Source: Escherichia coli (GTDB lineage Bacteria > Pseudomonadota > Gammaproteobacteria > Enterobacterales > Enterobacteriaceae). Taken from it: a DNA stretch of 64,000 nucleotides. The notes under the pieces are model-generated. The model worked only from the letters and a program-made list of their open reading frames with translations. It was not told the origin of the DNA and ran no database searches. Positions 25,342 to 47,643 of this stretch are shown here, one piece after another; the first letter of the stretch is position 1, and the number at the start of each line of letters is the position of its first letter. The DNA is taken from NCBI RefSeq assembly GCF_003334335.1, contig NZ_QOWQ01000002.1, one strand, 5' to 3'. The position numbers were made by a program, and so were the translations under genes.

Positions 25342-26592
25342 ATGGATGTCATGAGAAGTGTTCTGGGAATGGTGGTATTGCTGACGATTGCGTTTTTACT
25401 GTCAGTAAACAAGAAGAAGATCAGCCTGCGTACCGTTGGCGCGGCGTTAGTGTTACAGGTCGTGATTGGCGGCATTATGCTTTGGTTACCGCCAGGGCGT
25501 TGGGTCGCTGAAAAAGTCGCTTTTGGCGTGCATAAAGTGATGGCGTACAGCGACGCGGGTAGCGCATTTATCTTCGGTTCTCTGGTCGGACCGAAAATGG
25601 ATACCTTATTTGATGGTGCAGGATTTATCTTTGGTTTCAGGGTGTTACCGGCAATTATCTTCGTCACCGCGCTGGTGAGTATTCTCTACTACATCGGTGT
25701 GATGGGGATTTTAATTCGAATTCTCGGCGGTATCTTCCAGAAAGCATTAAATATCAGCAAGATCGAGTCATTCGTCGCGGTCACCACCATTTTCCTCGGG
25801 CAAAACGAAATTCCGGCAATCGTCAAACCCTTTATCGATCGTCTGAATCGCAATGAATTATTTACAGCGATTTGTAGTGGCATGGCCTCGATTGCTGGTT
25901 CGACAATGATTGGTTACGCCGCACTGGGCGTGCCTGTGGAATATCTGCTGGCGGCATCATTAATGGCGATCCCTGGCGGGATCTTGTTTGCCCGCCTGTT
26001 AAGCCCGGCAACGGAATCTTCGCAGGTTTCCTTTAATAACCTCTCTTTCACCGAAACACCGCCAAAAAGCATTATTGAAGCCGCTGCGACAGGGGCAATG
26101 ACCGGGCTGAAAATCGCCGCAGGTGTGGCAACAGTGGTGATGGCATTTGTTGCAATAATTGCGTTGATTAACGGTATTATCGGCGGCGTTGGTGGCTGGT
26201 TTGGTTTTGAACATGCCTCGCTGGAGTCCATTTTAGGTTACCTGCTGGCTCCACTGGCGTGGGTGATGGGTGTGGACTGGAGTGATGCGAATCTTGCCGG
26301 GAGTTTGATTGGACAGAAACTGGCAATAAATGAATTTGTCGCTTATCTCAATTTCTCACCCTATCTGCAAACGGCTGGCACTCTCGATGCTAAAACTGTG
26401 GCGATTATTTCCTTCGCGTTGTGCGGTTTCGCTAACTTTGGTTCTATCGGGGTGGTGGTGGGGGCGTTTTCTGCGGTTGCGCCACACCGTGCGCCGGAAA
26501 TCGCCCAGCTTGGTTTACGGGCGCTGGCGGCGGCGACGCTTTCCAACTTGATGAGTGCGACCATTGCCGGGTTCTTTATTGGTTTAGCTTGA
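25342..26592 (+). CDS. nupX: NupC-family nucleoside transporter
   Basis: Intact 416-aa polytopic membrane ORF; close paralogue of psuT. Confidence 0.92.
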   Translation: MDVMRSVLGMVVLLTIAFLLSVNKKKISLRTVGAALVLQVVIGGIMLWLPPGRWVAEKVAFGVHKVMAYSDAGSAFIFGSLVGPKMDTLFDGAGFIFGFRVLPAIIFVTALVSILYYIGVMGILIRILGGIFQKALNISKIESFVAVTTIFLGQNEIPAIVKPFIDRLNRNELFTAICSGMASIAGSTMIGYAALGVPVEYLLAASLMAIPGGILFARLLSPATESSQVSFNNLSFTETPPKSIIEAAATGAMTGLKIAAGVATVVMAFVAIIALINGIIGGVGGWFGFEHASLESILGYLLAPLAWVMGVDWSDANLAGSLIGQKLAINEFVAYLNFSPYLQTAGTLDAKTVAIISFALCGFANFGSIGVVVGAFSAVAPHRAPEIAQLGLRALAAATLSNLMSATIAGFFIGLA

Positions 26593-26599
26593 GTGTCAT

Positions 26600-26694
26600 T
26601 GCCTGATGCGCAAGCTTATCAGGCCTACATTTACTTGCTGAAATTGCCTGATTTGTAGGCCGGATAAGACGCGTTAAGCGTCGCATCCGGCAAC
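26600..26694. repeat. REP pair (BIME-like) between nupX and yeiI
   Basis: gcctgatgcgcaagcttatcaggcctaca and tgtaggccggataagacgcgttaagcgtcgcatccggc. Confidence 0.75.
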
Positions 26695-26698
26695 ATTG

Positions 26699-27787
26699 TT
26701 ACACCATTGGCACTAATGAAAGCGCGTTATCGGCAGACAGGGTAGGGTTGTTTAAGCTGCCGCTGGCGCGCGAAATTGCCGCGCAGGCTACCGCAAAACG
26801 GGCGCTGTCGCGGAAACTGTATCCTTCAAGAAAGCTATATACCAGGCCCGCCATAAAACCATCGTCAGCACCAAAACTGTCTACTGTCGTATGCGCTGGC
26901 GCGGTCAGCAAAAATTGTTCTCCATCCTTTTCGCTGCAATAAACTGACTCATCGGGCAAATAAACAAACAGTTGCTGAACACCTTGCTGATGCAATGCAT
27001 TCACTGCGGTATTACGGTCAGCATCGCTGGTGATCGCCTGTCCCCATAAAATTTCCAGCTCCGGTAAAGTGGGTTTCAGGGTGTGAATATGCGCCAGCCA
27101 GTGTTTGATTTTGCCCGCTTTGAATTCTGAAACGGTATCGACAAACACCGGGATTTCATCAGCGAGGGTAAAGACCCATTCCAGCGCCTCGGCTGTCAGG
27201 TTGCAATCAGCCAGTACCACGCCCGCATGACGAAGTAAATCGCGCGACCCGTTCAGTAGTTGCGGTGTCAACTGTTCCAGCAGATGGGTATCGTTAATCG
27301 CCAGCACGGTTTGATCGTCTCGATTGGCAATTGCCAGATACGTCGATGTGCTTTGACCATGCAAACGAACGCAGCCGGAGACATTCACGCCGGCACGGCG
27401 CGTTTCTTCCAGGAGCATTTCGCCATAAAAGTCATCGCCAATCACTGAAAGCAAATGGACGTCACGGCCTAACAGCGCCAGATTGTGGGCGATGTTGCGT
27501 CCCACGCCGCCCGCTGAGCAATGAATTGTACCGGGATGAGAAGCCGATTGCGGGTAACGGATATCCGCCATCCCGCGAATATCCATATTGATTGTCCCCA
27601 CCACTACGCAGTATTCCTGCTCGGTGAGAATGTAACCTTTGCCTTTAATCCGGCCTTTGCGCATTAAATCCATAATATGCGCCGCAACGCGCGAACGGCT
27701 GATTTGCAGCATGTCCGCAATTTCGTTCTGCTGAATCAGCGGGTTACGCCGTAAAATTGCAAGGATCTCCTTTTCCCGGTTATTCAT
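26699..27787 (-). CDS. yeiI: Sugar/nucleoside kinase (PfkB family) with N-terminal winged-helix HTH domain
   Basis: 362-aa ORF; N-terminal HTH (EILAILRRNPLIQQNEIADMLQISRSRV) fused to a PfkB domain that aligns by eye with PsuK (GGVGRNIA.NLALLG). Confidence 0.88.
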   Translation of the reverse strand: MNNREKEILAILRRNPLIQQNEIADMLQISRSRVAAHIMDLMRKGRIKGKGYILTEQEYCVVVGTINMDIRGMADIRYPQSASHPGTIHCSAGGVGRNIAHNLALLGRDVHLLSVIGDDFYGEMLLEETRRAGVNVSGCVRLHGQSTSTYLAIANRDDQTVLAINDTHLLEQLTPQLLNGSRDLLRHAGVVLADCNLTAEALEWVFTLADEIPVFVDTVSEFKAGKIKHWLAHIHTLKPTLPELEILWGQAITSDADRNTAVNALHQQGVQQLFVYLPDESVYCSEKDGEQFLLTAPAHTTVDSFGADDGFMAGLVYSFLEGYSFRDSARFAVACAAISRASGSLNNPTLSADNALSLVPMV

Positions 27788-41733: not shown

Positions 41734-42744
41734 ATGAGTGCGTTAAATAAGAAAAGTTTTCTTACTTACCTGAAAGAGGGCGGTATTTACGTCGTTCTTT
41801 TAGTTTTGCTGGCGATTATTATTTTCCAGGACCCAACATTTTTAAGTCTGTTGAACTTAAGTAATATTCTCACCCAGTCATCGGTGCGTATTATTATCGC
41901 GCTCGGTGTGGCAGGGTTAATTGTCACCCAGGGGACCGATCTTTCTGCTGGTCGTCAGGTAGGGCTGGCGGCAGTGGTGGCTGCGACATTATTGCAGTCC
42001 ATGGATAACGCCAACAAAGTGTTCCCGGAAATGGCGACGATGCCGATTGCGCTGGTTATTCTGATTGTCTGTGCCATTGGTGCGGTGATCGGTTTGATCA
42101 ACGGTCTGATTATCGCTTATCTCAACGTGACGCCGTTCATTACCACGCTCGGCACGATGATCATCGTCTATGGCATCAACTCGCTCTATTACGACTTTGT
42201 CGGGGCGTCGCCAATTTCTGGTTTTGACAGTGGCTTCTCTACCTTTGCTCAGGGCTTTGTCGCGCTGGGGAGTTTCCGTCTCTCTTACATCACCTTCTAC
42301 GCGTTGATTGCGGTGGCGTTCGTCTGGGTGTTGTGGAACAAAACCCGCTTCGGTAAGAACATTTTTGCCATTGGCGGTAACCCGGAAGCGGCAAAAGTAT
42401 CTGGTGTCAACGTCGGCCTGAACCTGCTGATGATCTACGCGTTGTCTGGCGTGTTCTATGCCTTTGGCGGGATGTTAGAAGCCGGACGTATCGGCTCTGC
42501 CACCAACAACCTCGGCTTTATGTATGAGCTGGATGCTATCGCGGCGTGCGTGGTAGGCGGTGTATCGTTCAGCGGCGGTGTGGGGACGGTGATTGGCGTG
42601 GTGACCGGGGTAATTATTTTTACCGTCATCAACTATGGCCTGACGTATATCGGCGTAAACCCATACTGGCAGTACATCATCAAAGGGGCGATTATTATCT
42701 TCGCCGTAGCGCTGGATTCACTGAAATACGCGCGTAAGAAATGA
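41734..42744 (+). CDS. mglC: Galactose/methyl-galactoside ABC transporter permease
   Basis: 336-aa polytopic membrane ORF; BIME cluster downstream. Confidence 0.95.
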   Translation: MSALNKKSFLTYLKEGGIYVVLLVLLAIIIFQDPTFLSLLNLSNILTQSSVRIIIALGVAGLIVTQGTDLSAGRQVGLAAVVAATLLQSMDNANKVFPEMATMPIALVILIVCAIGAVIGLINGLIIAYLNVTPFITTLGTMIIVYGINSLYYDFVGASPISGFDSGFSTFAQGFVALGSFRLSYITFYALIAVAFVWVLWNKTRFGKNIFAIGGNPEAAKVSGVNVGLNLLMIYALSGVFYAFGGMLEAGRIGSATNNLGFMYELDAIAACVVGGVSFSGGVGTVIGVVTGVIIFTVINYGLTYIGVNPYWQYIIKGAIIIFAVALDSLKYARKK

Positions 42745-42802
42745 TGTGAATGTGGTCCGCATTCGGTCATAAACGCACATAACATCATGATCTGTGTGGT
42801 TT

Positions 42803-42976
42803 TGTAGGCCGGATAAGGCGTTCACGCCGCATCCGGCAACAGGAGCCAAATGCCGGATGCAACGCTGGCGCGTTTTATCCGGCCTACAATAAGCTCAACA
42901 TACTGATTTGTATGGTTTTGTAGGCCGGATAAGGCGTTCAAGCCGCATCCGGCGACAGGAACCAAATGCCGGATGC
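42803..42976. repeat. BIME: two tandem ~115-bp units, each carrying REP copies, between mglC and preA
   Basis: Repeated tgtaggccggataaggcgttca(c/a)gccgcatccggc...ccaaatgccggatgc units. Confidence 0.85.
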
Positions 42977-42986
42977 GTCTCTGGTT

Positions 42987-44222
42987 TTACAACGTTACCG
43001 GGTGTTCTTTCTCGCCTTTCTTAAACTTCACTTCCCCGAGCTCAATACAACCCACCGGGCAGACGTGACCACAAAGCAGACAACCCACACATTTCTCGGT
43101 ATTACAATGCGGTGTGCGGGTTTTCTCGCTCCATTCCATCGCCTGGTGACCGCCGTCGTAACAGGAAATATAACAGCGTCCACAGCCAACACATTTATCA
43201 AGATTGATACGGGGATAGACAATATAACTGCGGTCTAAATCTTCCGCCGGGACAATATTGTTATTCGCCAGACCTACCATCTCCTGCAGCGAATCAAATC
43301 CCTGATCGGCGAGATAATGCGACAACCCGCTTGCCATATCTTCCACTATCCGATACCCGTACTGCATGATGCCGGTGGTCACCTGTAACGTTGCTGCGCC
43401 GAGCAATAAAAACTCAGCCGCATCCTCCCAGGTTTCAATGCCGCCGATACCGCTGATTGGGAAATCGCGCAGTTCTGGATGGGTGCGCATTTGCTGAATG
43501 AAGCGCAGGGCGATCGGTTTTACCGCTTTACCGGAATATCCGGAAATACTCGATTTTCCGTTAACGATCGGCATACCGATTTTCTGATTAAGATCGATAT
43601 TGGTGATGGATTTAACGGTGTTAATCGCCGCAATGCCATCTGCGCCGCCGCGCTTCGCCGCCAGCGCCACTTCGCACATATCACCGATATTCGGCGTCAT
43701 CTTCGCCAGCATTGGCAGCGTGGAACCCCGTTTCACTGCCCGACAATATTTTTCTACCAGCTCCGGGCTTTGCCCGACATCGCTACCCATCGCATGAGAA
43801 GTCATTTGCGGACAGGAGAAGTTACACTCGATCATATCCGCGCCAGCTTCTTGCACCAGGCGCGCCAGCTCCTCCCATTGCTGCTCATTTTCCCCCATGA
43901 TCGAAGCGATCAATACTTTGTCCGGGTAATCTTCCTTCAGCCGACGCAGGGCGGCCAGATTCTCTTCCAACGGATGTTCAGCAATCTGCTCCATATTTTT
44001 GAAGCCGATAAAACCGGTATCTTCTTTCACCAGATGATCAAAACGCGGCGAGACTTCGTTGGCGATAAAAAAGCCGATCGTTTTAAACACCACACCGCCC
44101 CAACCTGTGTCGTAGGCTTTGGCACACATCTCATAGCAGTTGCCTACCGGCGAAGAAGAGAGGCAGAACGGGTTGGGAAACTTCACGCCGCAAAAAGTAA
44201 TCGAAAGATCTTTCGTTAACAT
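42987..44222 (-). CDS. preA: NAD-dependent dihydropyrimidine dehydrogenase subunit PreA (dihydroorotate-DH-like, 2x 4Fe-4S)
   Basis: About 411-aa ORF with C-terminal ferredoxin-like Cys clusters ([23 protein letters not shown]); start overlaps preT stop. Confidence 0.92.

Positions 44223-45647: not shown

Positions 45648-47643
<1,996 letters not shown>

Follow-up and report, generated by a model that had tools for sequence, protein, structure and literature searches.

In a BIME-2 element, z2 and y REPs lie in inverted orientation, with a short S linker between them and s, l or r sequences flanking them (summarised in Ton-Hoang et al. 2012, PMC3333891). The same summary states that tandem copies of these elements are well conserved within a locus, and that the number of copies per locus varies among E. 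coli strains. REPs have been described as barriers to 3'-to-5' exonucleases, and many transcripts terminated by Rho have their 3' ends marked by one (PMC6061677 and works cited there); gyrase cleavage is enriched in BIME-2, with Y units above Z2 units (PMC6379681). Harris et al. (2026, bioRxiv 10.64898/2026.03.23.713779) have shown that REP325, the BIME-2 array between yjdM and yjdN that is also called naRNA4, attenuates read-through, partly via Rho, and stabilises upstream mRNA. They further reported that, where REPs separate two convergent genes, both tend to be expressed at a higher level. The Rfam family RF02564 (naRNA4) was built from a Y/Z2 pair of REP325.

Here, we explored the repeat between mglC and preA. 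This element is the catalogued REP156, an ordinary BIME-2 that was already known. The supplement of Harris et al. lists it as "REP156, Convergent, 2236684-2236535, preA, mglC", and PMC10100675 lists "REP156abc" for mglBAC, that is, three REP sequences. Apart from an in vitro Rho-binding entry near the element, direct experiments on REP156 were not found. We give a probability of about 0.9 to the reading that REP156 is a BIME-2 whose two 116-bp units were amplified at this locus before phylogroups A, E and B2 split, that the array shrank later, and that it likely serves as a 3'-end element.

The window is the whole stretch of 64,000 nt of E. coli DNA that was analysed, and it runs in reverse orientation relative to E. 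coli K-12. The gene mglC is the + strand ORF at 41734–42744, with its stop codon at 42742–42744, and preA is a − strand ORF with its terminus at 42987 and its stop codon at 42987–42989; the gap between them, 42745–42986, is 242 bp long. The operon mglBAC encodes the galactose transporter and preTA encodes dihydropyrimidine dehydrogenase. A 641-bp query spanning the site was 100% identical to E. coli K-12 MG1655, where the annotated features are mglC and preA, and the two genes are convergent neighbours in the NC_000913.3 annotation. The ORFs, the annotation and the MG1655 match thus confirm the placement given in the preliminary description. The RefSeq record NC_000913.3 as retrieved lists zero repeat features, and the name REP156 was taken from the paper supplements.

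A repeat search found a single direct-repeat family, formed by 42781–42868 and 42897–42984 (88 nt, 89% identity, spacing 116). The local alignment of unit 1 with unit 2 is gap-free, with 78 of 88 positions identical and 10 different. When all offsets were scanned, the best 60-nt window had 57 of 60 matches at offset 116, and every other offset gave at most 28 of 60. The repeat is genuine, with a match well above anything expected by chance. Its copy number is 1.76; the second copy ends after GCCGGATGCGTCTCTGG at 42984, without the final 28 nt of the period. Tandem Repeats Finder reported nothing at the site because the copies are fewer than two. The preliminary description had proposed two nearly identical units of about 115 bp at 42781–42980. 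Self-alignment of the intergenic region recovered the repeat and the start of this interval, but the true period is 116 nt, unit 2 is incomplete and the repeat continues to 42984. Near-identity is not an apt term for units with 10 mismatches in 88 nt.

Between the mglC stop codon and unit 1 lies a unique left flank (42745–42780), which was found in 2,852 of 5,426 genomes, at a single place in each. This flank was considered as a decayed Z2, by which K-12 would carry a 2.5-unit array like that of the related Escherichia locus L014; the alignment was no better than with shuffles (12 of 36 in register), and the idea was rejected. Unit 1 opens with a partial tail-side linker (l', AACATCATGATCTGTGTGGTTTT; 42781–42803, + strand) that corresponds in the alignment to the 3' portion of the inter-unit linker. 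Y unit 1 follows (42804–42837, + strand), with GTAG at its + strand 5' end; it was recognised by a pattern match at 42808, has a predicted hairpin of −19.5 kcal/mol and lies inside the Rfam naRNA4 match. The short head-to-head linker S1 (14 nt, AACAGGAGCCAAAT; 42838–42851), read from the sequence, leads to the Z2 unit (42852–42887, − strand), which has its GTAG on the − strand at 42874–42887, a predicted hairpin of −20.5 kcal/mol, and the sole exact match to the Z2 pattern in the whole window. The tail-to-tail inter-unit linker (32 nt; 42888–42919) is locus-specific, and its final 23 nt open unit 2. Y unit 2 (42920–42953, + strand), with GTAG at 42920 and a pattern match at 42924, has one mismatch to Y unit 1 and a predicted hairpin of −18.5 kcal/mol. 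It is followed by S2 (14 nt, GACAGGAACCAAAT; 42954–42967), which is identical to S1 at 12 of 14 positions, and by a shortened Z2 (42968–42984, − strand) that retains the head arm only. This last piece ends 2 nt before the preA stop and is present in every allele examined; a TT spacer (42985–42986) fills the distance. The catalogued extent of REP156, NC_000913.3 2236535–2236684 in the supplement of bioRxiv 10.64898/2026.03.23.713779, corresponds to 42803–42952, from Y1 through Y2.

The arrangement near the preA stop deserves a separate description. The first canonical REP lies 33 nt from this stop codon, and the only hairpin that starts within about 10 nt of it is the possible 10-bp hairpin between the Y unit 2 head and the shortened Z2 (predicted, −19.4 kcal/mol). 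Liang, Rudd and Deutscher are said to have reported in 2015 that a REP at most 15 nt from a stop codon causes ribosome stalling; we do not claim this mechanism for REP156. At L014 (L014:6039-6510, 'E. coli' SCPM-O-B-8794) the last Z2 is full-length, and preA takes its stop codon from the conserved GTAG of this unit (GTT GTAG G, giving Leu and then the stop TAG), so that the REP tail overlaps the last preA codons. K-12 has GTAA at this position, with the stop TAA.

The composition of the element is that of a BIME-2. Y and Z2 units are both present, as judged from the two patterns and the RF02564 score, and GTAGGCC at 42804 (+), 42874–42887 (−) and 42920 (+) gives them alternating orientation. 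The S linker is short and the long IHF-binding L linker of BIME-1 is lacking; the 14-nt S1 is shorter than an IHF site needs, and the IHF consensus WATCAANNNNTTR had zero matches within the mglC–preA intergenic region. The copies are in tandem, conserved locally and variable in number (1.76 copies, 89%; several alleles), and the element is extragenic, at the 3' ends of mglC and preA, two convergent genes whose stop codons enclose it. The BIME-2 scheme expects a tail-to-tail linker of s, l or r type, and one of 32 nt is present. From its length, this linker may be of type 'l'. The characterisation of the site as a classic BIME with REP copies is therefore borne out, since Y and Z2 alternate with short head-to-head and long tail-to-tail linkers.

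Nothing essential separates REP156 from the BIME-2 family, with which it shares alternating Y and Z2 units, short S linkers head to head, longer linkers tail to tail and an extragenic position at 3' ends; it is a small array, with three full units and a shortened Z2 that abuts the preA stop. Tandem, conserved and number-variable units are a published trait of BIME-2 (PMC3333891), and they are thus no peculiarity of the mglC–preA site. REP325 has the same Y-linker-Z2 two-hairpin module and the same tandem layout. However, REP325 has 12 hairpins, lies between same-strand genes and has been the subject of experiments, whereas REP156 has 3.5 hairpins, convergent genes and a locus-specific linker of its own. 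The copies most similar to these units at other E. coli loci are REP222 (exbD–yghA) and the pepN–ssuB BIME, which are likewise tandem, each unit opening with a linker and then Y. Their linkers are different (exbD–yghA has ...CAACATGTTGAATCTTCGTGCGTTT), and they are 78–84% identical to the REP156 units in the same register. The exbD–yghA element is an atypical BIME because of its Z1-type partners.

Several other repeats and motifs were observed in the window. A BIME at 26600–26692 lies between the convergent ORFs 25342–26592 (+) and 26699–27787 (−), and is composed of two units in tail-to-tail arrangement, one of them Z1-like, joined by a 25-nt linker of unrelated sequence. At 59871–59904 there is a lone Y-type REP that carries GTAG and differs from the REP156 Y units by two mismatches. 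The cdd–sanA region (46722–46751) has in K-12 a single degenerate Y REP without GTAG; its counterpart in Escherichia sp. MOD1-EC7003 (L019:261-1102) is a seven-unit Y/Z1-type array with a period of 115 bp and several Rfam naRNA4 and ES036 matches, and this copy-number gap is much larger than that at mglC–preA. The Rfam Peptidase-S11 RNA motif RF03039 was matched at 54533–54613 (+) with 72.8 bits (gathering score 34.8).

Unit number was compared across 5,426 complete E. coli genomes, as the preliminary description had proposed, and it proved to be variable. The intergenic region occurs in length alleles of 35, 70, 126, 242 and 258 bp, and across the genomes compared, L014 included, alleles with about 0, 0.5, 1, 2 and 2.5 units were observed. 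Of the 5,426 genomes, 2,852 have the K-12-type left flank and 2,558 (47%) the left junction of the 70-bp allele, together 5,410; by subtraction, the two-unit form is carried by about 2,787 genomes (51%). The 70-bp allele has the structure GRTATT-GCCGGATGC-GCY-GCATCCGGC-S-shortened Z2. From this arrangement we infer that it derives from a Z2-linker-Y palindrome, as found in E. whittamii (L018), the interior of which was deleted between the head arms.

The 126-bp allele lacks exactly 116 bp and was found in 65 genomes. It is always a hybrid with unit 1 on the left and unit 2 on the right, and in all 65 genomes the crossover falls in the same 28-nt stretch, which is identical in both units. Such a contraction to one unit is exactly what homologous recombination or slippage between direct repeats predicts. 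The carriers include 55 genomes of O157:H7 and no fewer than five unrelated strains (A30, SC516, M159-1, M171-1 and LR-48). The flanks were read for A30, SC516 and LR-48 and differ from the O157 flank, which suggests that the 116-bp loss has been recurrent. The smallest allele found, 35 bp in WWCOL-236 (L023:2514-2548), has an extra deletion between two GCCGGATG repeats; from the mglC stop to the preA stop, only GGTATT and a single shortened Z2 head are left. The 258-bp allele of MN06021 (L009:476-735) begins on the left like the short allele and continues with two Z2 units in direct orientation, a linker after each, and then Y-S-shortened Z2; it looks like a recombinant of two allele families.

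Expansions of the K-12-type allele to three units were not found. The 2,824 genomes with the linker contain no more than 14 additional linker copies, so arrays of more than two units are rare; the single multi-linker allele that was examined is the atypical one of MN06021. Because the present one-unit allele lacks the 28 nt of full Z2 plus linker, the two-unit form is not derivable from it by simple duplication, and the order of events is thus an inferred one. Such sites had been called hotspots for recombination and transposon insertion. The first part agrees with the five length alleles and the recurrent loss of 116 bp, but insertion of a transposon or insertion sequence was not seen at the site in a 40-row spread of genomes.

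The split of about 51:47 between the two-unit and 70-bp forms might be explained in another way. Both classes have counterparts in other Escherichia species, and the split could be a long-lived regulatory polymorphism under selection, in which unit number would tune the 3'-end processing and expression of mglBAC and preTA. We regard this explanation as improbable. Since 47% of the genomes have the 70-bp remnant only, the element is dispensable and any effect is modulatory; any function is non-essential, or is served by the remnant hairpin.

The resemblance of the two units could also come from two independent BIME insertions, or from the REP family consensus alone, without duplication at the locus. 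The identity is located mostly in the Y unit, which is found elsewhere in the window with 0–2 mismatches, and other BIMEs, such as exbD–yghA and pepN–ssuB, are tandem too. Unit 1 matches the best copies elsewhere at 73 of 87 positions (exbD–yghA) and 70 of 84 (pepN–ssuB) in the same register, which is 83–84%, and unit 2 matches the same copies at 68 of 87 and 67 of 84. The margin of the local units (89%) over these outside copies is real but modest, and it is modest because the Y consensus makes up most of the identity. However, the inter-unit linker settles the question in favour of the locus itself. A 43-nt query centred on the inter-unit linker was found in 2,824 of the 5,426 complete E. 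coli genomes, at 2,838 places with a median of one place per genome, and in every genome that has it the linker is confined to the mglC–preA locus. This restriction indicates that the units are related by amplification at the locus. When some 100,000 species genomes were scanned for exact matches to the linker and Y pattern, only seven loci were obtained, nearly limited to the same region: three are mglC–preA in other Escherichia (L014, L018 from E. whittamii, and L019), and the remainder are exbD–yghA and Z1-linker-Y elements in Citrobacter and Pseudocitrobacter. The S linkers tell the same story, because S1 and S2 are identical at 12 of 14 positions and differ from the S linkers of the other BIMEs examined. 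Independent insertion or consensus alone is therefore very unlikely. The suggestion of a local duplication stands, on the locus-specific linker and on 78 of 88 matches between the units against 73 of 87 and 70 of 84 elsewhere; the units are more alike (89%) than they are like outside REP copies (83–84%).

Amplification at the locus may be recent or old. A recent local tandem duplication would explain why the units look nearly identical at first sight, and they do share the locus-specific linker in strict tandem order. We compared the units among K-12, O157, JJ1886 and 536. K-12 is a member of phylogroup A and O157 of phylogroup E, and JJ1886 and 536 belong to B2. Unit 1 of K-12 matches unit 1 of O157, JJ1886 and 536 at 87, 86 and 81 of 88 positions, and for unit 2 the values are 88, 79 and 81. 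Within one genome, unit 1 and unit 2 match at only 73–79 of 88 positions. Orthologous units (79–88 of 88) are thus closer than neighbouring ones, so both units predate the split of the lineages and have not been homogenised since. The unit-specific states are kept in O157, JJ1886 and 536, and K-12 and JJ1886 share 86 of 88 positions in unit 1 while 10 of 88 separate the two units. Horizontal spread of a recent duplication among the phylogroups is also at odds with the long alleles, which are 4–5% divergent (95.9% and 94.9% identity). Another line of evidence comes from L014, which has the order Z2-linker-Y-S-Z2-linker-Y-S-Z2 with the same 116-nt period and units that match at 83 of 88 positions. 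Its flanking genes are about 95% identical to those of K-12, so it represents a divergent lineage, and this lineage also has two units. A recent origin, as claimed in the preliminary description, is contradicted by unit-specific differences that phylogroups A, E and B2 have in common, and we consider it highly improbable. The duplication is older than the split of these phylogroups.

The region has a strong predicted tendency to fold. Compared with shuffles, folding of the whole region gave z = −7.9 for the + strand; for the − strand, z was −6.9. In addition to the hairpins of individual units (−18.5 to −20.5 kcal/mol), Y1-S-Z2 can pair as a long hairpin of −52 kcal/mol and Z2-linker-Y2 likewise as one of −60 kcal/mol, both predicted. 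A simple search for terminators yielded a single weak candidate, located in Z2, and shuffled sequences yield as many. Rfam RF02564 matched Y1-S-Z2 at 42807–42884 with 88.3 bits (gathering score 59.5), and unit 2, with its incomplete Z2, reached 38 bits, below the threshold. The least credible reading is that of a naRNA4-like nucleoid-associated small RNA gene condensing the chromosome with HU: PMC4550694 proposed that two-hairpin Y/Z2 RNAs bridge DNA cruciforms with HU and the match exceeds the gathering score, but other BIME arrays match RF02564 too, the module is absent here in 47% of genomes, the 2026 preprint sharing that study's senior author found REP325/naRNA4 to act locally without measurable nucleoid compaction, and RF02564 is in effect a Y-linker-Z2 REP pair, so that a match shows membership of the repeat family and not function.

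The BIME-2 reading leads to the following scheme. The unit consists of the tail-side linker, Y, the 14-nt S linker and Z2, with the last Z2 shortened, and the array is placed between the mglBAC and preTA operons. The units arose by amplification at the locus before phylogroups A, E and B2 diverged, and the route could be a REP-associated transposase or unequal recombination or slippage. In the first case, the transposase would cleave inverted REPs and linkers and exchange strands there (Ton-Hoang et al., PMC3333891). Since the amplification, the array has repeatedly shrunk or been rearranged by recombination or slippage among its own repeated segments.

With regard to function, a bidirectional 3'-UTR element (RNA stabiliser or terminator) that is also a potential gyrase site is likely, by analogy with the described REPs. 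Transcribed from either side, the stacked hairpins likely shield the upstream mRNA from 3'-to-5' exonucleases, and they would likely contribute to ending convergent transcription. At the DNA level, the Y units may be gyrase cleavage sites; mglC and preA are not mentioned in the supplement of the gyrase study (PMC6379681). A table in bioRxiv 10.64898/2026.03.23.713779 gives an in vitro Rho-binding region at 2236464–2236532 on the preA sense strand. This region maps to 43023–42955 of the window and ends 3 nt from REP156.

REP156 belongs to the most abundant repeat family of E. coli and was catalogued before, and it matters little beyond housekeeping. What the present analysis adds is an allele series at the level of one locus over 5,426 genomes, the recurrent loss of exactly one unit at a defined crossover stretch, and an array older than the phylogroups. 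The alleles of 35, 70, 126 and 242 bp could be a convenient natural series for relating REP unit number to convergent 3' ends.
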